A stretch of DNA of 64,000 nt from Candidatus Shapirobacteria bacterium (GTDB taxonomy: Bacteria > Patescibacteriota > Microgenomatia > UBA12405): NCBI GenBank assembly GCA_041665485.1, contig JBAYIT010000001.1:73884-137883 (forward strand), given 5' to 3'. The position numbers were made by a program, and so were the translations under genes. Every line of letters starts with the position of its first letter. The stretch's first letter is position 1. Below the pieces are notes generated by a model. The model did not search any database and was not told the origin of the DNA. It saw nothing but the letters and a program-made list of their open reading frames with translations. Shown in pieces: positions 1 through 23,709 of this stretch.

Positions 1-123
1 ATCATTGCAACACTGTTTCATTTGTGAGACAATGTATTATCTCGGCAGGTGGACATGAGAATTTGTAAATAGCGCTAACTTGGACACCCCCTTGAGAATA
101 TTATTTTTTACGAATAAATCAAT

Positions 124-316: not shown

Positions 317-1372
317 ATGGCATTTGAAATTGATTATATCCCGGTGGGAAACGGAGAAAGCAGCGGTGATGCAATCGCACTTCGATATGGAAATCTTTCC
401 GGGCCAAGGGAAGAACAGACAATCGTCGTAATTGATGGAGGTTATAAAGAGTCAGGAGAAGCTCTTGTCCAACATATTAACAAGTATTACGGCACCAATT
501 TGGTAAATATGGCCATTTCAACACACCCAGACGCAGACCATGCGTCTGGCTTAGCTGTGGTTCTGGAAAAGTGTAAAGTTAACCAGTTGCTGATGCATAA
601 GCCATGGAATCATGCTCAGGACATCAAAAACATGTTTTTCGACGGAAGGATAACAGCATCTGGGCCAGAGGAAAGGTTGGAAAAGTCACTTCAGGACGCA
701 AGTGACTTGGAAAAATTGGCAAATAAAAACGGTATAGAAATATTGGAGCCATTCCAAGGTGTTGGAACAAGCGATGGCAGTATGAGGATATTAGGTCCAT
801 CCTTAGAACTATACGAATCACTTCTGTTATCTTTTAAACCATGCCCTGAATCGAAAGGATTGGATATAGCCTCACTCTTTAAGCAGGTAGCGTTAAAAGT
901 CGACGAATGGGTAGAAGATAACTTGGGGATCGATCTGTTGGATGATGATAATGACCAAACCTCCGCCGAAAACAACACGAGTACGATTGTCTTATTTACG
1001 ATTGAAGGACATAAATTACTATTTACCGGTGATGCCGGAAAAACTGGATTGCATTATGCCATTTCTTACGCTGAATCTCTAGGGATTCCATTAACTGACC
1101 TCAACTTTTTGGATGTTCCTCACCATGGGAGTAAGAATAACTTAAACAGTAAGATTTTGTTGAAAATAAGGGCACAAACAGCTTTTATTTCGGCTTCACC
1201 AAATGATCCAAAACATCCATCTAAAAAAGTGACAAATGCGTTGAAGAAACTTCGGCACGCGGTCTACGTTAATAGAAGCGGCATAATCTGCCACAACTTT
1301 AACTCACCCGTTCGAGAAGGGTGGGTTCCGGTGACTGAAGAACCGTTTCACGATAAATTCAAAGATGATTAA
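317..1372 (+). CDS. metallo-beta-lactamase-fold hydrolase
   Basis: HxHxDH-type motif 'STHPDADHASG' and later 'DVPHHGS'. Start ATG at 317 is preceded by AAGGAGGG, a Shine-Dalgarno sequence. The ORF track begins 24 nt upstream. Confidence 0.7.
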   Translation: MAFEIDYIPVGNGESSGDAIALRYGNLSGPREEQTIVVIDGGYKESGEALVQHINKYYGTNLVNMAISTHPDADHASGLAVVLEKCKVNQLLMHKPWNHAQDIKNMFFDGRITASGPEERLEKSLQDASDLEKLANKNGIEILEPFQGVGTSDGSMRILGPSLELYESLLLSFKPCPESKGLDIASLFKQVALKVDEWVEDNLGIDLLDDDNDQTSAENNTSTIVLFTIEGHKLLFTGDAGKTGLHYAISYAESLGIPLTDLNFLDVPHHGSKNNLNSKILLKIRAQTAFISASPNDPKHPSKKVTNALKKLRHAVYVNRSGIICHNFNSPVREGWVPVTEEPFHDKFKDD

Positions 1373-1395
1373 AAATTTGTTAGAATTAGCCTAAC

Positions 1396-2142
1396 ATGTC
1401 AGAAGATTTGAATAGTTTAAAACTAACAATTTTTGAGTTAATCAGCTATGTGTTCCCCGGCCTGTTGGTAATAATACTTGGGTTAGTATTTTTTCCGCCA
1501 GGGTTATCTATACTTAAAGACAACGTAATCTTGGTCTCATTCTTTTCCTACATAATCGGTAATTTGCTCCATCAACTAAGTGAGTCGAACCTTAATTTGA
1601 GACAGTATGGGTGGAAAATTTATCATTGGCTTAAAGAAAAAGATGAAAAAGGTCATGGAATTGAAAATCCGACAGGTCGGATAGGAAGATTAATGAAATG
1701 GTTTAGACATAAATGGTTGGAGAAAAAGAAGGACCCGATTAAAGATCTGTTGAATGTCACGGGGATCCTTAAAGAAAAGTGCAATGTAGACGAAGTCACC
1801 CCTTATGATCTGTATTTTTTAAAGGAGGCGTATCTGATAAACCAACCATCACTGGCTGGCTATTATCAATACCTTCTTTACCAAAAAATTTTTAATAAGT
1901 CATTGTCGTTGATATTTTTCTTAACCGCCGTTTTACTGATAATTTTGGATTACTTCAAAACTATTAGTGTCAATATTTATCCCGGATTATCATATTCAAT
2001 TGACGGTAAGGGATTGATCATTTCAGCAGGACTTATCTTGCTTTCCTTAGTCTTTAAAGACCGTTCTCGCTTTTTCAAAGATTATCGGGACAAAATATTG
2101 GATATGAATGTTTTAATGACTTTTGGAATGAAAAAAGCATAA
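1396..2142 (+). CDS. hypothetical integral membrane protein
   Basis: Multiple hydrophobic segments (several predicted TM helices). No recognisable catalytic motif. Confidence 0.45.
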   Translation: MSEDLNSLKLTIFELISYVFPGLLVIILGLVFFPPGLSILKDNVILVSFFSYIIGNLLHQLSESNLNLRQYGWKIYHWLKEKDEKGHGIENPTGRIGRLMKWFRHKWLEKKKDPIKDLLNVTGILKEKCNVDEVTPYDLYFLKEAYLINQPSLAGYYQYLLYQKIFNKSLSLIFFLTAVLLIILDYFKTISVNIYPGLSYSIDGKGLIISAGLILLSLVFKDRSRFFKDYRDKILDMNVLMTFGMKKA

Positions 2143-2235
2143 CCCTGGAAAGAAATCGTAGGCTTTCATTGAAGTTTATTGCTAGCAAATGTACACTCAA
2201 ACTCGTGGATCTGTCAGTAAAAAGACAACTATCTA

Positions 2236-3042
2236 TTAGTTTTCAAACACTCTCGATATCTCCCCGTAAACCTTAACCGACAGAGCCTCTTCCAAAAACT
2301 CGGAATCAAACTTTTTTACCTCGATCAACCGTCTTGCCTCATTTTTTGTCATCGATTTATTTTCGGTTAATCGATAATAGATAATTAGCCCTTCCACCAG
2401 TGAATTCTTGAGCTTTTGACTGCTATGCTGATATACGTACTGACGTAAAAATAAAGCCAAATCTTTAGTGTCAATCGGATCTGATAGCTTAATTAAATCA
2501 ATTAACACCGAGTTCGTTCTGGGAACGGGGTAGAATTTTTCTTTCCCCACTTCCATTAGCACTTTAACTTTAAAAAACGAACTAAAAACCCCATGTTCGT
2601 TGATAGTAGCCACCAGTTTCTTTGGTACCATTAGTACCACCCGGTCATAATTAATAAACGTCAAATGACCAAGCAATTGTTCGGCAAAAGAATATGGTAA
2701 ATTAGATACGATTTTGTTAAAGTCTTTCCCTTGTTTCCATCTTCCTCTTGGCAGAACGTGACCTCTGGCACTCTCAAAGTGGATTTCAACGTTGGTTGGC
2801 AAACCACTCAATATTGGCTCAAAATGCCTGTCTACCTCATAGGTAATAACCTTGCCCGCTTTAGTCGCCAACTCCCGGGTTAAATTACCAATTCCTGCTC
2901 CAATTTCCAATACCACATCATTCGAATTAATCTCTGCCATTTCAACTGTTTTCTTTATGATTTGGCTATCAGTCAGGAAAAACTGATCCAGCAAAGCATC
3001 GGGTGTAATTTTCCATTTACTTAATAACCTCTTTGCATCCAT
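2236..3042 (-). CDS. rRNA adenine N6-dimethyltransferase family (KsgA/Erm-like) paralog A
   Basis: SAM motif 'VLEIGAGIGNLT'. 'SNLPYSF' (NLPY-type motif IV). 'FYPVPRTNSVLIDL' (KsgA FxPxPKVDS-like). 'DQFFLTD' stands in place of the canonical GQNFL. Confidence 0.65.
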   Translation of the reverse strand: MDAKRLLSKWKITPDALLDQFFLTDSQIIKKTVEMAEINSNDVVLEIGAGIGNLTRELATKAGKVITYEVDRHFEPILSGLPTNVEIHFESARGHVLPRGRWKQGKDFNKIVSNLPYSFAEQLLGHLTFINYDRVVLMVPKKLVATINEHGVFSSFFKVKVLMEVGKEKFYPVPRTNSVLIDLIKLSDPIDTKDLALFLRQYVYQHSSQKLKNSLVEGLIIYYRLTENKSMTKNEARRLIEVKKFDSEFLEEALSVKVYGEISRVFEN

Positions 3043-3068
3043 ATCTAATTTTACTCTATTTTACCCTG

Positions 3069-3097
3069 TTTACAAAAGCCCTATAATAATATAAAAT
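3069..3097 (+). promoter_or_regulatory. sigma70-like promoter in divergent intergenic region
   Basis: TTTACA-17 nt-TAAAAT upstream of the 3121 start. The 78-bp intergenic region is shared with the divergently transcribed paralog. Confidence 0.35.
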
Positions 3098-3120
3098 AGA
3101 CCTATTGTTATAAACACCAT

Positions 3121-4224
3121 ATGTCTAGAACAAGAAGCCCTGAAACTCGCGAACTACCCCAAGAACCCCGTAGGACTAGACACGCCAGAATTGTTCCTAG
3201 TGTGGCCCTTGAACCTAGATTTTCGGAAGCAAATGGCGACGACGCCCCAATACTTTGGCAACCCGGCACCCCCATGGATGAAACTTTCTTAAGAGCGGCA
3301 GGAGTAATACCTAGTGAGGCAATTGGCCAAAATTTTCTCGTTGACCCTGAGCTTGTTGCCCTTGTCGCTTCCCAAATTATTCCTAACGCTCAAGTTGTAG
3401 AAATAGGCGCCGGCCCTGCCAATATGACCGCCGTTATTGCCCCAATCGTCCAAGAGGTTGTCGGTTTGGAAATCGATCCCGCCAGTTACCGACCTATTCA
3501 TGATGCCGTCTTGCCACAATTGGGTAATGCCCGCATCCTCTATCAAGACGCACTTAGTTTTAAATTTGAAAAATGGGTTGAATCACAGAGAGATGCCATT
3601 TATCAGGTGTTTGGCAATATTCCCTTTCACATTGCCGAGCCGCTTTTGGTTAAACTGGCTCGATTAGGGGATAGGGTTGACAGGATTACTTTGTTGGTGG
3701 GCGATAATTTTGCTCAAATTATGGCGATTCGGGATCCGCAAGATATTCGCTATGGCCGAATGTCTTTTGTGGCTAGCCTTTTCCAAGTCGATACTGTCGC
3801 CCAAATTCCTCGAGAGGGATTTTGGCCGGTTCCCCGCACCGATGCCACTCTTATTAACCTTACCCCCCTAGAACACGATTTAGACGGACGAGATTTGACT
3901 TTACAACTTCGTGGGCAAATTATAAATCAACCCGATCTAACGATAATTAAAGTATTAAATGGTTTTTCGCCCCGCCAAGCATCCGGCAAAATGTCGAAGG
4001 AACAAGCCCGTCGCCGTGACCGTCGACAAACTCGAGATGAACTTCGTGGTCTAACCCGACAACTTAAGCCCCAAGACGGTTATGCTTCAGGCGATAACCA
4101 ATCCCGTGTTGGTATTAGTCTTGTTACCCGTCTAGGCCTACCCCCAGAGATACTTAGCCAGCCCTTTAGTCGCTTAAATAATCAACAAGTCAGAATTCTA
4201 GCCCAAGCTATTGAAAAGTTGTAA
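3121..4224 (+). CDS. rsmA: 16S rRNA (adenine1518/1519) dimethyltransferase RsmA/KsgA-like, with N- and C-terminal extensions
   Basis: Canonical 'GQNFLVD', 'VVEIGAGPANMT', 'GNIPFHIAEP' and 'FWPVPRTDATLINL'. Noticeably more GC-rich than the flanking genes. Confidence 0.6.
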   Translation: MSRTRSPETRELPQEPRRTRHARIVPSVALEPRFSEANGDDAPILWQPGTPMDETFLRAAGVIPSEAIGQNFLVDPELVALVASQIIPNAQVVEIGAGPANMTAVIAPIVQEVVGLEIDPASYRPIHDAVLPQLGNARILYQDALSFKFEKWVESQRDAIYQVFGNIPFHIAEPLLVKLARLGDRVDRITLLVGDNFAQIMAIRDPQDIRYGRMSFVASLFQVDTVAQIPREGFWPVPRTDATLINLTPLEHDLDGRDLTLQLRGQIINQPDLTIIKVLNGFSPRQASGKMSKEQARRRDRRQTRDELRGLTRQLKPQDGYASGDNQSRVGISLVTRLGLPPEILSQPFSRLNNQQVRILAQAIEKL

Positions 4225-4237
4225 TATACAAATTTCG

Positions 4238-4882
4238 TCACTTAGTTTTTTTGGCTAGAATATAGTATCGACCTAAAGAATCCGGATATGATTTACGAGC
4301 TTTAATAATAGTAAAAAAACGCCCGATGATATGATCAACATCTTCGTTAGTAATACCAAATATTTGATCAAGCCTGTCTGGAATTTTCTCACTTTTTTTA
4401 GTTAGCGGGCAAGATAATAGGGTATTTGGTGGTCGAATGAACATTTCCAAAATAATATGTCCATCATTTTTTAATAGTCTATTAAATTCTTGATAGATCT
4501 TAGGCCAAAGGCGGGGACGGCATGAGGAAGTCATCGTTAAATCCATAATCAGATCAAAAGTGTTGCCGGGAATCGGTAAACCTTTGACAATATCTGCCTT
4601 AAATATGGTTGAATTCCTGTTCTGATTTTTAGCATATTTGACAGCCACGCTTGATATGTCGACGCCAGTAGTGTTGGTGAATCCGAGTTTTTCCAGCTTA
4701 ACCAATAACCGCCCTCGTCCACAACCGACATCCAGTATGGATGAATTCTTCTTCAAGACACCTTTTGATAATAGAGTTTTGACAAAACCAACAATATCTT
4801 CGGAAATTGGATAACATGACCAAGATGGTATGTCGTACGAGTAACGATATATTTTATTAAACCGTTTTTGATAGTCCAGCAT
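4238..4882 (-). CDS. class I SAM-dependent methyltransferase
   Basis: Motif I 'ILDVGCGRGRLL'. Overlaps the upstream aminotransferase gene by 26 nt (same-strand operon). Confidence 0.6.
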   Translation of the reverse strand: MLDYQKRFNKIYRYSYDIPSWSCYPISEDIVGFVKTLLSKGVLKKNSSILDVGCGRGRLLVKLEKLGFTNTTGVDISSVAVKYAKNQNRNSTIFKADIVKGLPIPGNTFDLIMDLTMTSSCRPRLWPKIYQEFNRLLKNDGHIILEMFIRPPNTLLSCPLTKKSEKIPDRLDQIFGITNEDVDHIIGRFFTIIKARKSYPDSLGRYYILAKKTK

Positions 4883-5987
4883 GTTTTAGCAGGATCTCTT
4901 TTAGGATTAAAACCCTTTCGACCTCGAGGAAATCTGTAGCATAGAGCTGGATGATGTTTTTTTGGATGATGCTCTCGGCATTAGCAAACTCCTCTTTTAC
5001 TTTAATATGATAAAAATCGGTTAGGATCTTATTTTTACTTAAAACAGTTTCATAGTTATGTTTTTGAGCATGGAAACCACTATTAATCAAATCTTCAATC
5101 AGATCCTTGGTATTTATATCCACCGACAACTCAATCACCGGCATATGAAAAACTCTATCTGCCTCCGGGTATGCAAGCTGAAAACTTATTTGATCAGTCG
5201 TCGACGACACCTCCCGCTGGAAGTTTAAAATATTAGTCTTTATCGTCAAACGTCGATTTTTGTTATTTTTCAAATCATGTAAGGCTAGCAATAAGGCAAA
5301 TAGGTGTGGTCTAAACTTAATGCCAACATTATTAGGAATATGTTTATAGTGGTTGGTTATTAAATCACTTGGGACTCTATTAGAGTGAGAAAAAAGCAAC
5401 GCCCTGTCGCGAAATACCGGATTATCGGTAGTTAATGCGCCAAGTTCACCTCCGCTAATCAGTTTACCTAAACCAAACGAAACACAATTAATGTCAAAAA
5501 ACTCTCCTATGGGTTTACCTCTCCACCGCGATTCATGGGCATGTGACGAATCAGAAATTATAAAGATTTTATGTTTTTTCTGTAATTGAGAAATTTTATT
5601 CAAATTGGTCAAGTTTCCCCAAGGCTGTAGAACCATTATCGCCAGAGTATTGTCATTGACAAGTTTGTCACACTTATCGACATCTAAAGCATAAGTTGCC
5701 GGATCAACATCACAAAAGACTGGTTTTAATCCAAAGGCGCAAATAACACTAATACTGACATGAAATCCGTAAGTTGGAATAATCACTTCCTTTTTATCAC
5801 TTTCCAGAGAAAGACAAAAAAGGGCTAGATACAGCGCCGAAGTGCCATTACATGTCGAAACACCAAACTTGTTGCCAAATAGTTTAGCCGCCTCGTTTTC
5901 AAACTCCTCCATGTAACCACCCTTAACTGTCGATAGCCAATTATCTTTAATACAGCGATCTATCTGTTCGAGATAGCTACTTGTCAT
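4857..5987 (-). CDS. DegT/DnrJ/EryC1/StrS-family PLP-dependent sugar aminotransferase
   Basis: N-terminal 'FGVSTCNGTSALYLAL' motif typical of DegT-family aminotransferases. Size about 376 aa. Confidence 0.7.
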   Translation of the reverse strand: MTSSYLEQIDRCIKDNWLSTVKGGYMEEFENEAAKLFGNKFGVSTCNGTSALYLALFCLSLESDKKEVIIPTYGFHVSISVICAFGLKPVFCDVDPATYALDVDKCDKLVNDNTLAIMVLQPWGNLTNLNKISQLQKKHKIFIISDSSHAHESRWRGKPIGEFFDINCVSFGLGKLISGGELGALTTDNPVFRDRALLFSHSNRVPSDLITNHYKHIPNNVGIKFRPHLFALLLALHDLKNNKNRRLTIKTNILNFQREVSSTTDQISFQLAYPEADRVFHMPVIELSVDINTKDLIEDLINSGFHAQKHNYETVLSKNKILTDFYHIKVKEEFANAESIIQKNIIQLYATDFLEVERVLILKEILLKHAGLSKTV

Positions 5988-5991
5988 GTTT

Positions 5992-7020
5992 TTATCGGTA
6001 ACATTGATATAATTTTAAAACTACCGTCAATGTTTTAAGCGCATCTTCTGGCTCCATAAACAATGACTTCGATTTTCCACAAACGACATTGAAAAAGTCT
6101 CCCATCTGCTCACGATGTTTAGTTCCATAGTAACTTACTGGTGGCGGTTCCGTAAATTTATCCGCATATGATTCCAATAACTCGCCCAACGTTTTAGCTA
6201 CTTCCGGATCCTCGTGGATAAGATGGATTACTTTAACGGGATAATCGGCCGAGAAAGTAATGGTTCCTTTGGTGCCAATTACTTCAATTTTTGAATCCCA
6301 GATATCGATAGAGGTGTTGGTTGTCGACAATATTGCCAAGCTCTCATCGGCAAATTTCATAATTGAAGCAAAAGTATCTTCTGTTTCAATAATCCCTTTA
6401 AATTTTAAATTAGAGCCAAAGGCTCCGACATCAACCGGCAAGCCTTTGATCCAAAGCAATAAATCTAAGGTATGGATAGCTTGGTTAATTAGAGTAGAAC
6501 CGCCCTCTTTGTCCAGTTTCCCTTTCCAGTAACTATTGGTGTAATACTCTTTATTTTTTTGGCTGTTTAGAGTTGCATTTACCATGGTGATGGCGCCGAA
6601 GGTGCCGGAATCAATCGCCTTTTTAATTTCCATGATTACCCGGTTGTACCGGTGCTGTGAAATCACCGTCAAAACATTGTGGTGCATTTTGGCCGTGGCA
6701 ATCATTCTTTCCGCATCTTGAACACTTAAGGCCATTGGCTTCTCAACAATAACATTTTTACCCGATTCCAACGCCCTGATTGCTAAATCAGCATGGCTTT
6801 TATGATCTGTACAGATCGAAACGGAATCAATTGAGCTATTAGCCAAGACTTCTTCAAATGAATTTGCTACCGATGCTATTTTGTGAGTGTCAGCAAATTT
6901 TTTGGCTTTTTCAATATCAAGATCGCAACAAGCGGCAATGGTTATGTTGTTGTGGATACATCCGTCAACATGGCTTGGAGCAATATGTCCGCAACCGATA
7001 ATGGCGTGCTTAATGTTCAT
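5992..7020 (-). CDS. Gfo/Idh/MocA-family NAD(P)-dependent oxidoreductase
   Basis: N-terminal Rossmann 'IGCGHIA' motif and typical family length. It pairs with the DegT aminotransferase in the manner of WbpB/WbpE-type sugar 3-oxidation and transamination. Confidence 0.7.
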   Translation of the reverse strand: MNIKHAIIGCGHIAPSHVDGCIHNNITIAACCDLDIEKAKKFADTHKIASVANSFEEVLANSSIDSVSICTDHKSHADLAIRALESGKNVIVEKPMALSVQDAERMIATAKMHHNVLTVISQHRYNRVIMEIKKAIDSGTFGAITMVNATLNSQKNKEYYTNSYWKGKLDKEGGSTLINQAIHTLDLLLWIKGLPVDVGAFGSNLKFKGIIETEDTFASIMKFADESLAILSTTNTSIDIWDSKIEVIGTKGTITFSADYPVKVIHLIHEDPEVAKTLGELLESYADKFTEPPPVSYYGTKHREQMGDFFNVVCGKSKSLFMEPEDALKTLTVVLKLYQCYR

Positions 7021-7028
7021 TTTTTTGT

Positions 7029-7943
7029 TTATAAATTAGTATTAGAATTAACTTCGTTAATTAAAATTTGAGCCCAAACGTCAGTTTTGTTTTGAGCCAG
7101 GTGAAGTATTTTTACCCCCGCCAAACTCTCTCTGATCTCTTGCGGACTGGGATTTGTTTTCTTCATTATTTCTTCAAGTGCATGTCCCGGCATAAAATTC
7201 CACGCCAGTGGTAATTCTCTTACTGTCAACTCGTTCTCCAATTGGTCGATGGCTAGCCATAAACAAAGTTGGTCATTGGGGATAAAACTATTTTTGTTTT
7301 TTCCGGTTAACATTTGTAAATAGAATTTTTTCCACAATCCAGCTAGGATGCGGATACCATCAGAAGAGCCGTAGATTATTCCTCCGTTCCAACATCTAAT
7401 ATTTAGTAACCTTTCCGCTGAGTAGTTGGTTTCAAAAGTGTTATTAACCAAATCAGCCATTTGTTGAGCCGATAATTGTGAACTGTCTTTAAAATACAGC
7501 CAACTAATGTCTGTTATGGATAATCTTCCCGGTCGACGTAATAATAAATAAACTACCGGTTTGTTGCTGTCACCAACTTCTAATTCTGTCGTTATCTTGT
7601 CCACATCTTCTAGGGCTAGAATATCGCTGTCGATGTACATTAGAGAATTAAAATTCTCGTCACTCATCGACTCTAATTTTGCGATTCTGGTGAGTGAGTG
7701 TTCGAGCTCACTGGTCGCACCAAGTGATTCTTTTAAATCTTGAGGCACTTTCACTTTCTTTATCTGGCAATATTGATCTCCCTGATCGGTTATATTTTTT
7801 ATATTACTACAGCTATAAACGTGGATAGGTAAATGGCTGTTAAGTTTTCTTATACTTCGAATGGCTGTTTTAAGGTAGGTTGTATATTTCTCGTCACTTG
7901 CCATCACTAGGCCAAAGGGTTGTTTTACTTTTTTGGGAATCAT
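7029..7943 (-). CDS. nucleotide-diphospho-sugar transferase, GT8-like glycosyltransferase (tentative)
   Basis: N-terminal 'VMASDEKYTTYL', DxD-like 'YIDSDILALEDV' and 'WNGGIIYGS' resemble the glycogenin/LPS galactosyltransferase family 8 layout. Confidence 0.45.
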   Translation of the reverse strand: MIPKKVKQPFGLVMASDEKYTTYLKTAIRSIRKLNSHLPIHVYSCSNIKNITDQGDQYCQIKKVKVPQDLKESLGATSELEHSLTRIAKLESMSDENFNSLMYIDSDILALEDVDKITTELEVGDSNKPVVYLLLRRPGRLSITDISWLYFKDSSQLSAQQMADLVNNTFETNYSAERLLNIRCWNGGIIYGSSDGIRILAGLWKKFYLQMLTGKNKNSFIPNDQLCLWLAIDQLENELTVRELPLAWNFMPGHALEEIMKKTNPSPQEIRESLAGVKILHLAQNKTDVWAQILINEVNSNTNL

Positions 7944-7976
7944 GAATATGTTTTATGAATAATTAATAATTTACCT

Positions 7977-8696
7977 TTAATTATCTTTTGTTGTTTCAAT
8001 AAAATTAGCTTCAAGCAGAAACTGCATCACTTTAATGGCAGTTTCCGAATATTTACCGTTGTTGTCAATGATGACATAGGAGCCATTTGGTAACAACCGA
8101 CTTTGTCGAAGAATTTCATCCTGGATTGCAAGCAGTTTGTCGTTCGAATATCGCTTTCTTAAAGTTTGATTATCACCAAAAAGTTTCTTTTCATTTGAAT
8201 TGAGTTTTGTCTCGTTGACCGTTAGTATGATTAGCTTACTATTTTTCTTTAGATATGGAGCAATAATTGTTGGGTTAAGCTGGACTCCCTCAAAAAGAAC
8301 GTTTTGAGCGCCTTGAACTTCTAGTTTGGGAATAATACTATCTAACAAAGAACACACCCCTTCAGAATAACGGTTATAACCCTTGATTAGATTATTTTTG
8401 GAATACAGACCATCTCCAATTAGTTTATAACTATCACAAGATCCAAGGAAAACATAAGGGTTTCTCATCTCTTTAACTTTTAGGTTTTCTATTTCTTGAG
8501 ACACGAGGCGCAGGACGTCCATCGACTGGAGGACACAACTTTCAATAGAACCCGATATTAGTGGGGCAATTGTTGACTTTCCTGATAGGGGAACCCCGGT
8601 CATAAAAAGAGCCGTATTGGGTAAGGTAAATTTATACTTTGGCTTAAGTATCGTAAAATGTGTTTTTATTGTATTATTCTTCATCTTTCCAAACAT
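7977..8696 (-). CDS. P-loop NTPase / putative kinase
   Basis: Walker A 'GVPLSGKST'. No further family assignment is possible by eye. Confidence 0.5.
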   Translation of the reverse strand: MFGKMKNNTIKTHFTILKPKYKFTLPNTALFMTGVPLSGKSTIAPLISGSIESCVLQSMDVLRLVSQEIENLKVKEMRNPYVFLGSCDSYKLIGDGLYSKNNLIKGYNRYSEGVCSLLDSIIPKLEVQGAQNVLFEGVQLNPTIIAPYLKKNSKLIILTVNETKLNSNEKKLFGDNQTLRKRYSNDKLLAIQDEILRQSRLLPNGSYVIIDNNGKYSETAIKVMQFLLEANFIETTKDN

Positions 8697-9969
8697 CCTT
8701 CTCTCTTTTGAGCTTTAATAAATGAACCAGTCTGTCTTTTGATTTTTTCTGCAGACCATTGTCGTTTGGTCTATTTAGGTTTTCAAGAACAATCTCGGCG
8801 ACGGTTTGAGTTTCGGTTTCGGTGTAGCCCCTCGCGGTTATCCAAGATGTTCCCAGCCTGATGCCGCTGGCCACATAAGGCTTTAATGTTTCGCCCGGCA
8901 CTACCTGTCTGTTGGTCAAAATTCCAATATTTTCCAAGTTAGTTTCCGCCTCTTTTCCGGTCAGATTAAAAGTCTTTAGGGTATTTAAAACCATTAAATG
9001 AGTGTCACTTCCGCCCGTAACCATAAGTTCGGGGTATTGTCCAAACACCTTTTCAAAAACTTTAATATTCGTTATCACCCTGGAAACATAGTCCTTAAAC
9101 CAAGGCTTACCAGAATCTATCAAGCATTGGGCTATTTCATAAATACGCCTTAATGGCACGCTTGATTGAACGCCGGGATGGACAGCTCTGTCAATATCCT
9201 CTTTCAGAGATTCTTTGCACAAAATAATGCCGCCATGTGGCCCCAACATGGTTTTATCAAGAGTTAACGTGACCACATCACAATAAGGAAATGGCTTTGG
9301 AAATTTTTCACCCACGATCAAACCGGCAGGGTGCGATAAATCAGCCATTAAATAAGCTCCAACCCGCCTTGAGATATCCGCCAATTTGCCAAAGTCTATT
9401 GTTCTTGGATATGAAGACGCTCCGCAGACAATTAGTTTAGGTTTAAATTCTTTTGCTTGCTTCCTGATGGCGTCATAATCTATCCACCCGTCATTTCCAA
9501 CTCCATAAAAATCAAAATTAAAGAATCTTCCTGAGAAGTTTTTCTTCATTCCATGGGTTAAATGTCCTCCGGCTTCAAACTTCATCGCCAAAACCCTGTC
9601 TCCGTTCTCCAGTAGCCCTTGATACACAGCCTGATTTGCCTGGCTAACCGAATGTGGCTGCACATTGGCATGTTCTGCCCCAAATAATTCACAAGCCACC
9701 TCGGTGGCTATTCTTTCAATCCGGTTAAATCCTTCAGCTCCGGCATAAGGTCTGTGTTCAAGAAGACCTTCGGCAATACTGGCATGCCTAAGGGGAATGT
9801 CGATATATTTTCGAAGAGTCGGGCTGGCCGGAGCAATCAGATTTGTCGTTATTAGGTCATACTGATCCTGCATCTTAGCCGCTAAAACCAACTCCTTTTC
9901 TTTTTCCTGATAATATTTTTTATTATTTTTCACTCTTGGATTAAGCCTAAGATTCTGACTTATAAGCAA
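8674..9969 (-). CDS. glyA: serine hydroxymethyltransferase
   Basis: Strong collinear similarity to SHMT: 'NVQPHSVSQAN', 'GGHLTHG', 'ADLSHPAGLI', PLP-lysine region 'TLDKTMLGPHGG' and 'GSDTHLMVLN'. The N-terminal 'ENY' region is diverged. Confidence 0.85.
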   Translation of the reverse strand: MLISQNLRLNPRVKNNKKYYQEKEKELVLAAKMQDQYDLITTNLIAPASPTLRKYIDIPLRHASIAEGLLEHRPYAGAEGFNRIERIATEVACELFGAEHANVQPHSVSQANQAVYQGLLENGDRVLAMKFEAGGHLTHGMKKNFSGRFFNFDFYGVGNDGWIDYDAIRKQAKEFKPKLIVCGASSYPRTIDFGKLADISRRVGAYLMADLSHPAGLIVGEKFPKPFPYCDVVTLTLDKTMLGPHGGIILCKESLKEDIDRAVHPGVQSSVPLRRIYEIAQCLIDSGKPWFKDYVSRVITNIKVFEKVFGQYPELMVTGGSDTHLMVLNTLKTFNLTGKEAETNLENIGILTNRQVVPGETLKPYVASGIRLGTSWITARGYTETETQTVAEIVLENLNRPNDNGLQKKSKDRLVHLLKLKREKDVWKDEE

Positions 9970-10642
9970 TCGGGTCTTTCATCAGATTCAGCTCAAAGGC
10001 TTCAATTCTGGCCTTACAGTTACTACAATGGCCGCAAGCAACCTCTGTTCCGTTATGGCAGGACCAGGTAAATTCAAACGGAACCTTCATGTTGTTACCC
10101 AATTTTATTGCCCCGGTTTTATCCGTTTCGGTCAGTGGGTGAAAAATCTTAATGTCTTTCTTCAACATCGTTCCCTTTTCAACTACTTTTTGGTAAGCAT
10201 CAATAAATTCAGGACTATTGTCTGGGCATATGTGGTCGCCTCCGGTTGACCCAACTACAATTATGTCCGCACCTTGGACCTCCGCCAAAGCCGTAGCTAC
10301 CCCAAGGAATATCGAATTTCGAAAAGGAACATATTCCAATCGAAAGTTTCTCTCATCAAGCGGTATATTTTTATCCAGCAATGCCGAACCGCCAAAATTT
10401 TTGATCCAAGGAAGATCTACTTTGTAAACTTGTTTAACTTTCCAATGTTTGACTAATTGATCCAAGCACCACTCTTCTTTTTCTGCTGTTTTTTGTCCAT
10501 ATCTAAGAAATAAAAAAATCGGCTGATAACCCTGCTCGATGGCCATCGCCGTCGCCACTGTGCTGTCTAAACCACCACTAATTAAACAAACTGCCTTTTT
10601 TTGTTCAGTTGTCATTATGTCCTCCTTTTTGGACCAAACCAT
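9947..10642 (-). CDS. queC: 7-cyano-7-deazaguanine synthase
   Basis: PP-loop 'LISGGLDST' and C-terminal zinc motif 'CGHCSNCKAR'. Confidence 0.85.
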   Translation of the reverse strand: MVWSKKEDIMTTEQKKAVCLISGGLDSTVATAMAIEQGYQPIFLFLRYGQKTAEKEEWCLDQLVKHWKVKQVYKVDLPWIKNFGGSALLDKNIPLDERNFRLEYVPFRNSIFLGVATALAEVQGADIIVVGSTGGDHICPDNSPEFIDAYQKVVEKGTMLKKDIKIFHPLTETDKTGAIKLGNNMKVPFEFTWSCHNGTEVACGHCSNCKARIEAFELNLMKDPIAYKSES

Positions 10643-11430
10643 ATTAATTGATTTCTCTCAATAATTCTCCACCCTCGGCTATTTGTGTCTTTTTGAACCA
10701 ACGTCTGATGTTCGGTCACTGCCTCTTTAGTTAATCCTTCCGGCATTATTAAGACCCTTTTGGGGTTTAAGTTACAACTTTCAACTATTTCTTCGATTTC
10801 CTTCAGATCTTCAACTCGGCTGACGACAAATTTAAACCATCCAACTGGCCACCCATTAATCAGACTTAAAACCTCGGGCCTAAATCTCAATTTTTTCTCA
10901 TTACCACTGTTGGCTAATTTGGGTGAACAGTTTATTTGACATTGAATCAATTCTGGACTCGGTTTGATCGTGCCATTGGTTTCAATTTCCACTTGCCAAT
11001 CTTTCATTTGGTTTAACAACTTAACAATCAAGTCTTGTTGTAACAAGGGTTCACCGCCGGTTATGACCACCCTTTTTTGGATATTTTTATCCAGCCCAAA
11101 TTTATCCACCCAAGCTTTTTCAATTTCTATTTTTGTTTTTTCTATACTCCAATCTTCTGGTTCCTGCCAGTATTCCGCTCTTTTGGTGTCCCACGTATAT
11201 CCTGTGTCACACCTCCATCCGTTTGGAAAACCACAATGAAGGTTACAAAACTGTAATCTTAAAAACACTGCCGGGCAACCAGCGGTACCTCCTTCAGATT
11301 CCAGTAGACCTTCTCCCTGAAGGGTAGCAAACACTTTATCTCCCGACACTTTAAAAAAATCGAGCTTCCGAGCTGACTTTAACAAGTCACCCTTAGTGGG
11401 TTTATAAACAACGCTAGATTGTTTTTTCAT
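10615..11430 (-). CDS. queE: 7-carboxy-7-deazaguanine synthase (radical SAM)
   Basis: QueE-type cluster motif 'CNLHCGFPNGWRCDTGYTWD' and 'ITGGEPLL'. Confidence 0.8.
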   Translation of the reverse strand: MKKQSSVVYKPTKGDLLKSARKLDFFKVSGDKVFATLQGEGLLESEGGTAGCPAVFLRLQFCNLHCGFPNGWRCDTGYTWDTKRAEYWQEPEDWSIEKTKIEIEKAWVDKFGLDKNIQKRVVITGGEPLLQQDLIVKLLNQMKDWQVEIETNGTIKPSPELIQCQINCSPKLANSGNEKKLRFRPEVLSLINGWPVGWFKFVVSRVEDLKEIEEIVESCNLNPKRVLIMPEGLTKEAVTEHQTLVQKDTNSRGWRIIERNQLIWFGPKRRT

Positions 11431-11550
11431 TTGCAGGTTTTATTGGCTCACCTTCGTGAGGTCCTGCTACCGCTGTAGGTTTTAATGGTCCGCCCATTAA
11501 GAGCGGGACACCTACCACCGTAGTTGGGAGAATCTTAGCTAATTGCAATA
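11431..11550 (-). promoter_or_regulatory. promoter (TTGACA-17-TAAGAT) plus roughly 95-nt structured leader of the queE operon
   Basis: Read on the minus strand: 'TTGACAAAGATATTGCAATTAGCTAAGAT', then leader hairpins CUACGGUGGUAG, CCGCUC-UUAAU-GGGCGG, CUACAGCGGUAG and CUCAC-GAAG-GUGAG before the ATG. Confidence 0.5.
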
Positions 11551-11603
11551 TCTTTGTCAAGATACATGTTTTTTACGAACAGAGAGATGATCGCCCTATG
11601 TTT

Positions 11604-11919: not shown

Positions 11920-14097
11920 TCAAAAAAGTCCCAACTGGTTTTCACAATTAATTTTCTTTTTAGCTGGACTAAAAATTTTATTTAGTCCCAAAGTTCGGTA
12001 AGTTCGTAAACGTTTGAAATACATAATTTTAAGCATTGGTACTTGATCATCAAAATAGTCATAAATCGTAGCGTTGGTTTTTCCCTCAAAACTTCGTTGA
12101 ACTCTACCCACATATTGGATTAGTTTTCCTTTCCACGAAAACGGAAAAGCTAAAAATAGATGTGACACTGCCGGCCAATCAAAACCTTCGCCGATTAATT
12201 TACCCGTAGCAATTAGTAGTTAAAATTGTTTTTGGTTAATTCGTTTAGCAATTCGTTCTCTCTGCTTTTTAGTCATCACTCCAGTAGCTATGGCAGCCTG
12301 AACACCTTTAGTTTATTGTCGAATGAGATCCAGTAGTGTGTGACAGTGGTCGAGACGTTCAGTTAATACTAAGCACTTAGCTCCGGTATTTAACGCATCG
12401 ATAATATCGTCAGTAATTTGATTGTTACGATCAGGGTCGGATATAACTAATCGACAGGCTTCTTGAAAATCTTCTAATTTTACATTAGCTTTAAACTGTG
12501 TTTTTCGAGTGATTAAATCGGTTTTTACGATTTGGTTGGAGTTTTCACTGTTATCAATATTTTCCGTAGTTGCTTTGACTATTTGATAGCTAACATACAA
12601 AAACATCAGTTTTTCTAATTTATCTTTACGATAAGTGGTGGCGGTTAATCCTAAAACATGTTTAGAAGGGAATTGTCTGACGACAGTACTAAAAGTATTG
12701 GCCGGGGCATGATGGCATTCGTCAATAATAATTAACCCAAAATCATTTTTAATTTCATCAACCCCTCGTCTGGATAAAGTCATGTAGGAAGCAATGGTTA
12801 CTTTTTTACCAACACTCCATTTGTTATCGCCAATAATGCCTATATCAAGTTTTGAAAGAGAAAAATAATCAGTAATTCGTTTTTGCCATTGATGGAGCAG
12901 AGTGTTAGTGTGAACAATAATTAAAGTTTTTTGACCCAGTTTTTTCATTAACGCTAGAGCGACCATAGTTTTACCAAAACCAGGTTGAGCTTCCAAAATA
13001 ACTCGGTCATGAGGTAGTAACTGATGTAAAACTTGTTTTTGATCTTTACGAAGGATCAGTTTAGACGGGAAACGTACTTGTTTTGTAGTTACTCGATTAT
13101 CAACAGCCTCGATTTTTATCTGTTCTTTTTGACAAAATTTATTTAGTTTTTCCAAAAATCCCAAAGGAACTCCTATTCCATCTGGCAATCTCTCGAGGGT
13201 TTTAATAAATCGAGGGGTGTTCCAAGTGGAATAACCAAATCGTTCTTTGGTGTAAAAGTCAGGGTTGGGAAAATTTAATTCTTTTTTGAGGTATTTATAC
13301 AGTTTGTCGGGTAAATGAGTGCTAGGAATAAATATGTTTGACCCTAAAATCAATTTAGTTTCTTGATTTTGAGTTGTGGTAACAGGTAGCTCTTCAACAT
13401 TTTCATCGGGCTGGTTAGGCAGATCGTCGATTGTTTTATTGCTGGATAGTTGAAGATATTGATTGATTTCTTGTAAAGATGTTCTTCGAATTGACTGTAG
13501 ATATTGCCATTGATCAGGAATCTCTTGACCATCTGAGTTAATAAAAACGGTTGTGTTGTTTGTGACAAATTTCCCATTAAGTGGCAAACAAATTAAATTT
13601 CCATAACCTTTACCGGTATGTTCATCTTGGCTGGGAAACATTCGATCAAATGTTTTTCGATCTTGGACTCCTGCCTGGTTTAATAGTAATTTACCCATTT
13701 GTCGGGCTAGATGAGCCGGAATTTGCCCGTTAAAGAAAAACCAGACATGACCACCATTGCCCGATTTTGACCGTTCTATGGCACAAAATAGATCATTGTT
13801 AAAAGCTTTAATGGTTACTTTTTGAGCCAAAATCAACCAATCTGGTCCGTCAAAATCGATGGCTAAAAAAGTAGTGGTGTTGTCTGGAAATAATGGATAA
13901 ACGCCAATTACCTGTTTTCCGTCTAAGTGTGATTGAATAACCGAATCTGTCAATGCTAAGGGGCTTTGATTTAGTCGAAAAACTGGAGCGTAACCAGACT
14001 TCTTCTTCGGTAAATCTTCCCAATAACGGGCAAAGACATCGTCTCGGGTGTCAAAGAGAGAACGATAAAGTTTAATATTTTCAGCCGAAATGCTCAT
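11920..14097 (-). pseudogene. primase-polymerase (AEP) / SF2 DExH helicase fusion, disrupted by two in-frame TAA codons
   Basis: N-terminal AEP motifs 'LAIDFDG', 'SKSGNGGHVWFFF' and 'ICLPLNGK'. Helicase motif I 'QPGFGKTM', motif II 'DECHH', motif VI 'QYVGRVQR' and 'LLIATGKLIGEGFDWP'. A single frame runs from 14097 to 11920 and is interrupted only by TAA at 12313-12315 and 12220-12222. Confidence 0.6.
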
Positions 14098-18060: not shown

Positions 18061-18873
18061 ATGGACATAAAAACAATATTGGATAAATATGGGATTAAGC
18101 CGGATCCGCAGAAGGACCAGTTCTTTTTGACTGATGAGGAAATAATTGAAAAGACGGTGAAGGTGGCTGATATTAATGAAGATGACACAGTGCTAGAAAT
18201 TGGTGCAGGACTGGGAAACTTAACGACCGAATTGGCAAAAAAGGCTAAAAGAGTAATAAGTTTTGAAATTGACAGAGCGTTTGAGCCAATATTGAGCCAA
18301 CTACCCAAAAACGTAGAAACACATTTCGAAAATGCCTGGGAATATGTGCAACTTCATGGTAAATGGAGGAAAACTAAAGAATACAACAAGGTGGTGGCTA
18401 ATATCCCCTATTCTTTTGCCGAACAATTGTTACATAATTTCACCTTTTTGATGTATGACAAAATAGTTTTGTTGGTGCCAAAAAAATTTTTGGGGAGTGT
18501 TAAAAGACATGGTATTTTTAGCTCGTTTTTTGAACCAAAACTGATACTGGAGGTGGATAGAACAAAATTTTTCCCGGTGCCACGAACCGATTCGGTTTTG
18601 ATTGATTTGGTTAAATTGCCCGACCCTTTGAAAAACAGGGATTTGGCCTTATTTTTAAGGCAGTATGTATATCAACACGAAGATCAAAAAGTTAGAAATT
18701 CATTAATGGAGGGAATAATTACTTACAAATGGTTAGCGTTGGAAGAAACAATGACGAAAAACGAGGCGAGAAAAATGGTTAAAGATAGTGGAATTGATTT
18801 AAATTTATTAGAAACTCAACCCGGTGATAAAATTTATGAAGAAATTAGTAGGGTTAAGTGGATGGTAGACTAA
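18061..18873 (+). CDS. rRNA adenine dimethyltransferase family (KsgA/Erm-like) paralog B
   Basis: Roughly 60% identical by eye to the protein at 2236-3042. Shares 'DQFFLTDEEII', 'VLEIGAGLGNLT', 'ANIPYSFAEQLL' and 'FFPVPRTDSVLIDL'. Confidence 0.65.
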   Translation: MDIKTILDKYGIKPDPQKDQFFLTDEEIIEKTVKVADINEDDTVLEIGAGLGNLTTELAKKAKRVISFEIDRAFEPILSQLPKNVETHFENAWEYVQLHGKWRKTKEYNKVVANIPYSFAEQLLHNFTFLMYDKIVLLVPKKFLGSVKRHGIFSSFFEPKLILEVDRTKFFPVPRTDSVLIDLVKLPDPLKNRDLALFLRQYVYQHEDQKVRNSLMEGIITYKWLALEETMTKNEARKMVKDSGIDLNLLETQPGDKIYEEISRVKWMVD

Positions 18874-23632: not shown

Positions 23633-23706
23633 TGTCCCCGTAGTTCAATTGGATAGAATAGTGGCCTCCGAAGCCATTGATTCGGGTTCAACTCCCGACG
23701 GGGATA
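23633..23706 (+). tRNA. tRNA-Arg(CCG): tRNA-Arg (anticodon CCG)
   Basis: Acceptor GTCCCCG/CGGGGAT, anticodon stem GTGGC/GCCAT with loop CTCCGAA, T-arm TCGGG-TTCAACT-CCCGA. Confidence 0.8.
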
Positions 23707-23709
23707 CTG

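Follow-up and report, generated by a model that had tools for sequence, protein, structure and literature searches.

A candidate biosynthetic gene cluster for a glycosylated 7-deazaguanine metabolite in Candidatus Shapirobacteria and other bacteria of the Candidate Phyla Radiation

A stretch of 64,000 nucleotides from Candidatus Shapirobacteria bacterium (assembly GCA_041665485.1, contig JBAYIT010000001.1, positions 73,884 to 137,883; hereafter the window, in whose own numbering its features are given) carries on the minus strand a cluster of eight intact open reading frames (ORFs) that spans 4238-11430, neighbouring ORFs either overlapping or lying at most 33 nt apart. A preliminary description of this DNA had reported eight close-packed genes on one strand behind a TTGACA-17-TAAGAT promoter and had read them as a tailored 7-deazapurine pathway; gene packing and promoter were both borne out, the latter at 11560-11532, and the same promoter type was found at the same place in related loci. 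What the preliminary description had overlooked is a gene on the opposite strand, convergent on the end of the operon, for a long methyltransferase of the KsgA/Erm family (RrnaAD_b), which proved to be the most conserved partner of the cluster; the structured RNA leader had escaped it as well. From high to low coordinates the features are:

11532..11560, minus strand: sigma-70-like promoter TTGACA-17-TAAGAT
11475..11520, minus strand: RNA motif, copy 1 (CGGT / GTAGGT / hairpin CCGCTC-GGGCGG / ACCA / TTAAA / ACCTAC)
11433..11472, minus strand: RNA motif, copy 2 (CGGT / GCAGG / hairpin CTCAC-GTGAG / CCA / ATAAAA / CCTGC), ending 2 nt before the queE start codon
10615..11430, minus strand: radical-SAM QueE-like protein of the 7-carboxy-7-deazaguanine synthase type (SAM, S-adenosylmethionine)
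9947..10642, minus strand: divergent QueC-family ATP-dependent enzyme (QueC*)
8674..9933, minus strand: divergent pyridoxal phosphate (PLP) enzyme with the serine hydroxymethyltransferase (SHMT) fold (SHMT*), annotated glyA
7977..8696, minus strand: P-loop kinase with nucleoside monophosphate (NMP) kinase fold
7029..7943, minus strand: GT8-like retaining glycosyltransferase of the GT-A type
5992..7020, minus strand: Gfo/Idh/MocA oxidoreductase, probably a sugar 3-dehydrogenase
4857..5987, minus strand: DegT-family PLP aminotransferase for a sugar or cyclitol
4238..4882, minus strand: class I SAM methyltransferase, a variant-specific tailoring gene
3121..4224, plus strand: RrnaAD_b, long KsgA/Erm-family methyltransferase, convergent on the operon end, core member of the cluster
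2236..3042, minus strand: RrnaAD_a, second KsgA/Erm-family methyltransferase, possible accessory member

From the end of queE onward the junctions are an overlap, 13 nt, an overlap, 33 nt, 8 nt, 4 nt and again an overlap. The SHMT* gene probably starts at 9933, the position used by gene callers, and not at the listed TTG at 9969. Promoter-like sites as such are not enriched in the window (38 found, 33 expected from shuffles); a TTGACA-type promoter directly upstream of the RNA motif recurs, however, in eight of the related loci described below (L004, L019, L021, L028, L030, L031, L033 and L034). Terminator-like sites number 7 against 10.5 expected from shuffles, and the sequence scan found none at the junction of SHMT* and kinase gene, which overlap by 23 nt. 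The locus is present with identical or near-identical proteins in three independent assemblies (L001-L003), with all eight ORFs intact.

Pfam and NCBIfam models agreed with the family assignment of each protein, the matches of QueE and of the GT8-like protein being weak. The QueE-like protein reaches only 80 bits with TIGR03963 (cut-off 260); it is 45-63% identical to the product of the gene that follows folE-queD in relatives. QueC* matches PF06508 at 176 bits and TIGR00364 at 140.8 bits, below the cut-off of 150.3, and its similarity to the solved QueC of Bacillus subtilis is no better than that to Cap9. In E. coli QueC the residues Y35, R99, Y131 and Y189 are required for queuosine formation, and a canonical signature has been defined (PMC13329287). 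QueC* keeps SGGLDS, VPFRN and the C-terminal zinc cysteines C(x)7CxxCxxC, the first cysteine spacing being one residue shorter than in the consensus of PMC13329287, and lacks H39, Y131 and Y189 of the canonical signature. The eight variants aligned all retain SGGxDS, VPxRN and the zinc cysteines, and all have YGQKT where the canonical motif is YxQxH, CPDN for YPDC and SCH for SCY. The label "queC" of the preliminary description therefore holds for the family and fails for the housekeeping enzyme; by its signature residues the protein is a cluster-specific subfamily.

The same applies to "glyA". SHMT* belongs to the SHMT family (PF00464, 306 bits; NF000586, 368.6 bits with a cut-off of 335) and retains the Schiff-base lysine within DKT, the glutamate of AEG, the asparagine of the folate loop and the PLP-stacking histidine. 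Compared with solved SHMTs, TTTTHK has become TLTLDK, GPRGG has become GPHGG and KYAEGYPG..RYYGG has become SIAEGLL..RPYAG; the alignment starts only at about residue 52, the first 50 residues or so not being canonical. More than 120 relatives share 68-81% identity with SHMT*, and the variant motifs T[LF]T[LP]DK and GPHGG are present in nearly all of the 120 best homologues. Seven relatives were sampled, picked solely for their long contigs: each of the seven has QueC, a glycosyltransferase and the kinase in its cluster, and five have QueE as well. For 50 of the 119 SHMT* entries listed, the size of the longest contig equals that of an entry of the kinase family. Given the variant motifs and the seven cluster contexts, a housekeeping glyA is unlikely; judged by its motifs, SHMT* is a cluster-specific subfamily, so that of the earlier label the family stood and the housekeeping role did not.

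The kinase has a Walker A motif and no Pfam match, and a sequence search against the PDB gave only noise. Its model (predicted local distance difference test, pLDDT, 91) superimposes on adenylate, thymidylate and UMP/CMP kinases with template-modelling scores of 0.45-0.53, which hints weakly at a nucleotide-like substrate. The family has 143 members among 5.8 billion proteins, and Shapirobacteria, Levybacteria, Daviesbacteria and "Patescibacteria group" are among the source names.

The next three genes form what we call the sugar module. The GT8-like protein passes PF01501 marginally (25.7 bits, cut-off 24.3) and has only 16 homologues among the 5.8 billion proteins; the motifs D105-x-D107 and H281..K286..W290 are invariant, and its predicted structure (pLDDT 90) finds LgtC as best fold match (E = 1.7e-11), followed by UGGT, LARGE1 and XXYLT1. 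The oxidoreductase (Gfo/Idh/MocA, 91 + 78 bits) has as closest solved relatives WlbA (3q2k, 112 bits, and 3q2i), the C-glycoside 3-oxidase DgpA and glucuronide 3-dehydrogenase. For the DegT protein (PF01041, 183 bits) they are glutamine:scyllo-inosose aminotransferase, perosamine synthase, BtrR, NtdA and WbpE (66 bits). The preliminary description had likened the two enzymes to WbpB and WbpE. The likeness holds in kind only, as a probable sugar 3-dehydrogenase next to a sugar aminotransferase; the two fall far below the equivalog cut-offs of WbpB/WbpE, and neither wbpA, wbpD, wbpI nor any other Wbp gene is found in the cluster. Read from these similarities, the module fits a route in which a hexose is transferred, then oxidised and finally transaminated to an amino sugar. 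An aminocyclitol (scyllo-inosamine) pathway, to which IolG as best NCBIfam match of the oxidoreductase and glutamine:scyllo-inosose aminotransferase as best PDB match of the DegT protein would point, is ranked lower because the closest solved relatives of the oxidoreductase are pyranose 3-dehydrogenases and because a glycosyltransferase always accompanies the pair. No homologue of the SAM methyltransferase at 4238-4882 was found in any other variant of the cluster.

Distant homologues of the GT8-like protein (29-32% identity) were also seen in Streptomyces spp., including S. griseocarneus (L014-L018), in loci resembling biosynthetic gene clusters (BGCs). One locus type contains a B12-radical-SAM enzyme, a carbamoyltransferase, a sulfotransferase, an ATP-grasp enzyme and a gene of the major facilitator superfamily (MFS), the other an aminotransferase, a SIS-domain protein and a protein resembling glutamyl-tRNA synthetase; neither has que or other cluster genes.

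The genomic contexts of the GT8-like homologues, together with scans of genomes and metagenomes and compared by tblastn, showed that at least 12 different variants of the cluster share one core; they come from Candidatus Shapirobacteria, Daviesbacteria, Levybacteria and other bins of the Candidate Phyla Radiation (CPR). In L004, L019, L021 and L006 the proteins are 45-76% identical to those of the window, so that these loci represent distinct lineages; synteny is conserved between variants with no more than 45-72% protein identity. The invariant core consists of QueC*, a GT-A glycosyltransferase, SHMT*, usually the kinase, and one long RrnaAD protein, and the tailoring genes vary. The variants (L numbers denote loci, coordinates in them refer to their own records) are composed as follows:

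L004, gene order: RrnaAD, RrnaAD / folE, queD, queE, queC, SHMT, GT8, Gfo/Idh/MocA, DegT, NUDIX
L019, gene order: folE, queD, queE, queC, SHMT, GT8, Gfo/Idh/MocA, DegT, RrnaAD, RrnaAD
L021, gene order: folE, queD, queE, queC, SHMT, GT8 (contig end)
L006, gene order: queD, queE, SbnB-like, SbnA-like, queC, alanine racemase, GT2-like, carbamoyltransferase, methyltransferase, SHMT, GT8, kinase, hydrolase, BpsA_C, RrnaAD
L028, L032 and L034, content: folE, queD, queE, queC, NodU-type carbamoyltransferase, GT2, SHMT, kinase, RrnaAD
L029 (Daviesbacteria), content: like L028, L032 and L034, but with a FolE2-type cyclohydrolase
L033: carries DegT and another GT-A enzyme (Nucleotid_trans)
L030 and L031: a small T-fold protein and a transporter replace folE-queD-queE; queC is kept

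The preliminary description had proposed to look in related genomes for que and sugar genes side by side. The GT8-like gene (55-62% identity) does lie with the genes of QueE, QueC and SHMT* in L004, L019, L021 and L006, so that the outcome that would have refuted the coupling, que and sugar genes of relatives in separate loci, was not obtained. Oxidoreductase and aminotransferase genes accompany it in L004 and L019 (oxidoreductase identity 68-70%), and L006 lacks a homologue of either. Since the coupling recurs across relatives, we regard the que and sugar genes as functionally linked and not as an accidental fusion, and the synteny supports the earlier reading as a tailored 7-deazapurine pathway. 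In other variants the module is exchanged for a NodU-type O-carbamoyltransferase, for SbnA/SbnB-like proteins with a racemase, or for an aminopropyl module, an AdoMet (S-adenosylmethionine) decarboxylase with BpsA_C. Variation of tailoring genes of this kind is usual for secondary metabolites. The NodU-type enzyme in the place of the module points to a sugar hydroxyl as the putative site of decoration.

In L006 the SbnB-like and SbnA-like genes (924-4733; 275 and 327 bits, just under the cut-offs) together with an alanine/serine racemase gene are, by similarity, a module for 2,3-diaminopropionate or a D-amino acid; the record is labelled "uncultured Gammaproteobacteria", which is probably an error of binning or naming. 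The queC of L030 (6835-7492), a salvage-type variant, is split by a frameshift and intact in its close relative L031. A 37%-identical GT8-like gene occurs in L008-L010 with DegT, Gfo/Idh/MocA, an APH-type kinase, a Ser/Thr kinase, GT4 and three radical-SAM genes, one of them fused to an FGE-sulfatase; because these clusters have no que genes, the trio of glycosyltransferase, oxidoreductase and aminotransferase also exists on its own. The 16S rRNA gene of L004 (17571-19874) measures 2304 nt against a model of 1533 positions and hence contains a large insertion, as is known from rRNA genes of CPR bacteria; a weak match to a group II intron domain abuts its 3' end.

The genes folE, queD, queE and queC are complete in L004, L019, L021, L028, L029, L032, L033 and L034. 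The preliminary description had seen no queD, folE, queF or tgt in the window, and the searches agreed with it: tblastn found no homologue of FolE or QueD in the whole 64 kb, and domain scans of the 20 larger ORFs found neither tRNA-guanine transglycosylase (TGT) nor QueF nor QueA. A trace of the loss may be preserved in the queE start. The QueE of the window begins with MKKQSS and continues with YKPT (11413-11430, minus strand), relatives' QueE begins with M..(I)YKPT, and the FolE of L004 (6219) and of L033 (5458) begins with MKKNSS, resembling the start of the window QueE. We tentatively propose, on the evidence of these six residues, an in-frame deletion from the folE start to the queE start that kept leader and start codon; the variant of the window would then be a derived one, folE-queD belonging to the cluster in most relatives, and its lineage may obtain 6-carboxytetrahydropterin (CPH4) or a deazapurine from elsewhere. 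In L030 and L031 the transporter scores 122 bits with the queuosine-precursor-transporter model (cut-off 51), and QueC* is retained even in these precursor-importing variants.

Between promoter and first que gene lies a compact RNA motif of constant layout: CGGT, 1 nt, a strand of 5-6 nt (S2), a GC-rich hairpin, ACC(A/G) or GCCG, an A-rich stretch (TAAA) and the complement of S2, with the start codon 2-5 nt further on. There are 13 instances in 10 loci, each immediately preceding the leading que gene, be it folE, queE or the T-fold gene. They are in tandem in the window, in L021 (~2425-2522) and in L032 (4271-4362); the other positions are 6167-6220 in L004, 748-805 in L019, 1104-1167 in L028, ~5743-5810 in L030, ~5750-5813 in L031, 5408-5459 in L033 and ~4224-4287 in L034. 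In every one of the 13 instances helix S2 pairs completely, and nine different sequences make up the helix. With the alignment fitted to the model, compensatory changes occur at all 5 pairs, a score reached by none of 500 shuffles; pairing is 100% and falls to at most 40% with the partner slid. A plain MAFFT alignment led to the same conclusion on S2; in the hairpin region MAFFT alignments were structurally incoherent.

A covariance model of helix S2 only, built from 8 instances (the rest of the motif was parsed by hand), matched copy 2 at 50.7 bits (E = 1.7e-10) and found L019, which is outside the training set, at E = 3e-5. Its matches in 368 kb lie solely upstream of que operons; the subtype of L030, L031 and L034 is missed at E <= 1. 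No Rfam 15 family, RF00522 included, matched the window leader at E <= 10 or the leaders of L004, L028 and L031 at E <= 1. Pairing of CGGT with ACCG (S1) would give an H-type pseudoknot with the strand order of the preQ1-I riboswitch. Because of position and context the motif suggests a translational riboswitch for a 7-deazaguanine, and with a conserved, covarying structure in the 5' untranslated region of related genes it shows what is generally expected of a candidate new riboswitch class.

The presence of RrnaAD_b adds a possible target. The protein has 367 residues, or 316 if Met52 is the start (the Joint Genome Institute calls the gene from the later Met); the first 51 codons or so (3121-3273) encode an Arg/Pro-rich stretch not shared by any relative. 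With PF00398 it scores 101 bits, the paralogues in the window 92-101. With TIGR00755 (KsgA, cut-off 171) the three window paralogues score 105-114 bits and the cluster relatives 138-151, and with NF000499 (Erm, cut-off 212) the scores are 78-111 bits. In a tree of 18 RrnaAD proteins each complete cluster contributes exactly one member to a "long" clade (323-367 residues), and the extra copies are polyphyletic. Throughout the long clade the SAM motif is recognisable, save in the window copy, where EIGAGPA has another residue for the third glycine; NxP[FY] can be recognised in 8 of the 11 proteins. The window copies carry NIPF or NLPY. The 110 C-terminal residues of the long-clade proteins have a pI of 9.8-11.3 (RrnaAD_b 11.3).

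Second RrnaAD genes flank the clusters of L004, L019, L032 and L033. In the window there are, besides RrnaAD_b and RrnaAD_a, a further copy:

18061..18873, plus strand: third RrnaAD paralogue, 58% identical to RrnaAD_a

RrnaAD_a and this copy are sisters in the tree. The three paralogues thus lie within 17 kb of the window, and none reaches the KsgA cut-off.

An rRNA adenine methyltransferase beside a biosynthetic cluster is a classical sign of self-protection at the target site. By analogy RrnaAD_b most likely methylates the rRNA of the producer, as we infer, and it is mainly because this putative rRNA methyltransferase adjoins the cluster that we propose a ribosome-directed product.

The cluster is accessory and not housekeeping, because decayed remnants of it exist, recombinase or integrase genes flank it and defence genes surround it. 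The remnants were found in Shapirobacteria and "Berkelbacteria" metagenome-assembled genomes (L012, L013) and on unassigned metagenome contigs (L022-L026); they keep a truncated GT8 gene (the first ~112 codons are gone), the oxidoreductase gene, an often frameshifted DegT gene and the RrnaAD gene, and retain no que genes, SHMT* or kinase. Recombinase or integrase genes flank L032 and L034, and the neighbourhood in the window is a defence island with a TOTE AEP-helicase, SLFN/AlbA_2 and a helix-turn-helix (HTH)-Peptidase_M78 protein.

The TOTE-type AEP primase-helicase gene (11920-14097, minus strand) is itself broken: its ORF ends at 12313, beyond which helicase motifs V and VI are encoded in other frames as far as ~11920, and the same truncation to 594 residues is found in L001 and L002. 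Further along, on the plus strand, the window encodes an ABC-F type ATPase (39044-40498; two ABC domains and an ABC_tran_Xtn linker), some members of whose family protect ribosomes from antibiotics, and four MFS transporters (23677-24912, 28363-29553, 45717-46901 and 53476-54630). GC skew has negative values between 2 and 12 kb, the part with the cluster on the minus strand, and strongly positive ones from ~14 kb to the end of the window, where nearly all genes are on the plus strand; the cumulative minimum near 12 kb may reflect strand-linked composition or a replication landmark. A phage origin, suspected from the skew, was rejected, as the DNA had no match in a phage collection and housekeeping genes are present; the window carries four tRNAs, ClpB, PurF and Fpg.

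We consider it somewhat better than an even bet that the locus is a biosynthetic cluster for a glycosylated 7-deazaguanine metabolite, aminated and methylated in the variant of the window, with immunity by rRNA methylation and a riboswitch-like feedback. What was observed is the gene content with its conserved co-occurrence, the signatures of the subfamilies and the covariation of the RNA; all chemical steps of the following scheme, the target and the ligand are inferred. FolE, QueD and QueE of relatives would make 7-carboxy-7-deazaguanine (CDG), and other variants would instead import a queuosine precursor via a YhhQ-type transporter. QueC* would activate the 7-carboxylate with ATP and convert it to the nitrile, or to an amide as in amide-forming QueC homologues. 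The GT-A glycosyltransferase (GT8-like in the window) would attach a hexose from a nucleotide sugar, whereupon in the window variant the Gfo/Idh/MocA enzyme would oxidise a ring hydroxyl, probably that at C3, the DegT enzyme would transaminate the resulting ketone to an amino sugar, and the methyltransferase would methylate the product. SHMT* and the NMP-kinase-like enzyme would add or process a unit derived from glycine or serine and a phosphate. The product would target the ribosome, the long RrnaAD protein methylating the rRNA of the producer. Transcription would start from the TTGACA promoter, and the tandem leader would sense a 7-deazaguanine and control translation.

Several points weigh against this proposal. 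The genomes of CPR bacteria are small and rarely carry secondary metabolism. No exporter is encoded in the operon, MacB-type ABC genes flanking only L032 and L033. Lacking folE and queD, the window variant needs CPH4 or a deazapurine from elsewhere or is partly disabled. SHMT* passes the NCBIfam cut-off for SHMT and keeps the folate-associated Glu, Asn and His, and thus may be a true SHMT. The RrnaAD proteins stay below the cut-offs of both KsgA and Erm, and instead of conferring immunity they could act as N-methyltransferases in tailoring or as enzymes of RNA modification. Finally, the S1 pairing of the leader is mostly invariant, its central GG/CC never varies, and the pseudoknot is unproven.

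The absence of an exporter is also what one would expect if the deazapurine-sugar were built for or on rRNA, tRNA or DNA, with the KsgA/Erm-like protein as the RNA-targeting component of a hypermodification system. Sets of kinase, glycosyltransferase, PLP enzyme and radical-SAM enzyme are typical of DNA hypermodification, as in the thymidine and deazaguanine systems of phages; the RrnaAD_b gene stands beside every complete cluster, its product having a basic C-terminal domain as for nucleic-acid binding, and one class of variants possesses a queuosine-precursor transporter. We nevertheless consider such a system unlikely: the gene tables of ten variants and the 29 window ORFs scanned contain no transglycosylase of the TGT/DpdA type, which also argues against the DNA or tRNA deazaguanine modification that the preliminary description had offered as an option; the cluster is accessory and decays in some lineages; and the wide variation of tailoring among close relatives suits a diffusible metabolite better than a conserved macromolecular mark. 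A diffusible metabolite need not be an antibiotic. It could be a cofactor, a signal or a component of a cell-surface glycoconjugate, the RrnaAD proteins then being tailoring N-methyltransferases acting on an exocyclic amine, for which their NxP[FY] motif is typical and with which their scores below the KsgA and Erm cut-offs would agree; GT8, GT2 and O-carbamoyltransferases occur in glycan pathways too, and the cluster is widespread in organisms with minimal genomes. This we hold to be quite unlikely, since RrnaAD retains the basic C-terminal domain, genes for a lipid carrier, flippase or polymerase are missing from the cluster, and we know of no member of the RrnaAD family that methylates a small molecule.

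The defence-type genes around the cluster in the window (TOTE, SLFN/AlbA_2, HTH-Peptidase_M78) raise the question whether a toxic deazapurine nucleotide analogue could be made in the cell upon infection. Qat and CBASS defence do employ QueC homologues, the fold of the kinase is that of NMP kinases, and NUDIX genes adjoin some variants. An anti-phage or conflict system of this kind appears very unlikely to us all the same: QueC* scores 141 bits with canonical QueC and 38 with QatC, partners such as QatA, QatB, QatD or a CD-NTase are missing, the operon is under a leader RNA of the metabolite type instead of an infection sensor, the TOTE gene next to it is broken, and other variants do not share the defence context. 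Finally, housekeeping queuosine genes and glyA might have come to lie next to a glycan locus by chance, and the preliminary description had named an accidental fusion as an alternative; in favour of this, each gene comes from a common family. The recurrence of the arrangement in at least 12 divergent variants refutes it; moreover, QueC*, SHMT* and the kinase are cluster-specific and the genes overlap in a single operon, so that we give it practically no weight.

Returning to the glycosylated 7-deazaguanine metabolite, a bolder generalisation would be that CPR bacteria widely carry private antibiotic clusters for hexosyl (amino-sugar or carbamoyl-sugar) 7-deazaguanines hitting the ribosome, with repurposed QueC and SHMT, a new clade of KsgA/Erm-like immunity proteins and a new class of deazapurine-sensing pseudoknot riboswitches; this we regard as possible, yet doubtful. 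If the proposed biosynthetic reading is right, organisms with genomes of less than 1 Mb, mostly known as episymbionts, would spend about 8-12 kb on a diversifying small-molecule weapon or signal built on the scaffold of a queuosine precursor, a new source of deazapurine chemistry. There would be two new enzyme subfamilies, a QueC without canonically essential residues and an SHMT in which Asp occupies the position of the conserved His beside the PLP lysine, and a new clade of rRNA methyltransferases with possible relevance to resistance. The RNA element is compact, has no counterpart in Rfam and lends itself to direct ligand-binding tests, and automatic labels such as "glyA" and "queC" can mislead in CPR genomes. 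In the literature we found no description of the cluster family, of the SHMT* and QueC* subfamilies or of the RNA motif in CPR bacteria.

Of the known systems the preQ1-I riboswitch is closest to the leader: in both, the 5' strands of stems 1 and 2 with a short loop between them are followed by a loop, the 3' strand of stem 1, an A-rich loop and the 3' strand of stem 2, which lies next to the start codon, and both stand upstream of que biosynthesis or transporter genes. The leader differs by a GC-rich hairpin in loop 2, by a stem 2 of 5-6 bp, by its conserved nucleotides (CGGT... ACC... TAAA) and by its tandem arrangement in three loci. RrnaAD shares with Erm and KsgA the Pfam family, the basic C-terminal domain and, in most members, the SAM and NxP[FY] motifs, and like Erm-type resistance genes it lies beside a biosynthetic cluster; it is 60-100 residues longer and stays below both cut-offs. 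Adjacent pairs of a Gfo/Idh/MocA dehydrogenase and a DegT aminotransferase that aminate a sugar ring are known as WbpB/WbpE (WlbA/WlbC), NtdC/NtdA, KanD2/KanS2 and Pur10/Pur4, but the window pair is far below every equivalog cut-off and the other genes of these pathways are absent; the 3'-amination in puromycin biosynthesis (Pur10/Pur4/Pur7) is an analogy only.

In the biosynthesis of the hexopyranosyl nucleoside antibiotics blasticidin S, mildiomycin and gougerotin, joining of base and sugar is followed by oxidation and amination of the latter and by attachment of an amino-acid unit; the finished compounds bind to the ribosome. Their base is cytosine, however, instead of 7-deazaguanine, and their producers protect themselves without methyltransferases of the KsgA/Erm type. 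In the blasticidin S type of pathway the glycosyltransferase-like BlsD/MilC couples a free nucleobase to a UDP-sugar (PMC3715490).

Altered QueC homologues are known from RoyL (roseomycin, peptidyl-deazapurines) and from Cap9 and QatC (protein N-termini), which join the 7-carboxylate of CDG to an amine and not to ammonia. QueC* likewise departs from the canonical catalytic signature, and by this analogy amide formation by QueC* is put forward as a hypothesis; its QatC score is poor (38 bits) and its similarity to Cap9 is no better than that to B. subtilis QueC.

The nearest relatives in the proposed chemistry are the glycosylated products of actinomycetes derived from 7-cyano-7-deazaguanine (preQ0), of the huimycin/dapiramicin type (bioRxiv 10.64898/2026.04.15.718813). 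Here, too, a preQ0/CDG core (FolE, QueD, QueE, QueC) is joined by enzymes decorating 7-deazaguanine as the free base, namely a glycosyltransferase and SAM methyltransferases. The glycosyltransferase HuiG is of the PF13439 type, whereas the enzyme of the CPR clusters has the GT-A fold (GT8-like, GT2 or Nucleotid_trans); the CPR clusters also differ in that their QueC is divergent, SHMT*, an NMP-kinase-like enzyme and an rRNA methyltransferase are added, and the hosts are not actinomycetes. A survey of ~900 deazapurine BGCs, dominated by Streptomyces, makes no mention of Patescibacteria, of a hydroxymethyltransferase or of rRNA genes (bioRxiv 10.64898/2026.04.15.718813). As in the known 7-deazapurine BGCs (toyocamycin, tubercidin, huimycin, roseomycin), the core is clustered with tailoring genes across genomes: the cluster is probably of the 7-deazapurine natural-product type, in unexpected organisms and with several new parts.

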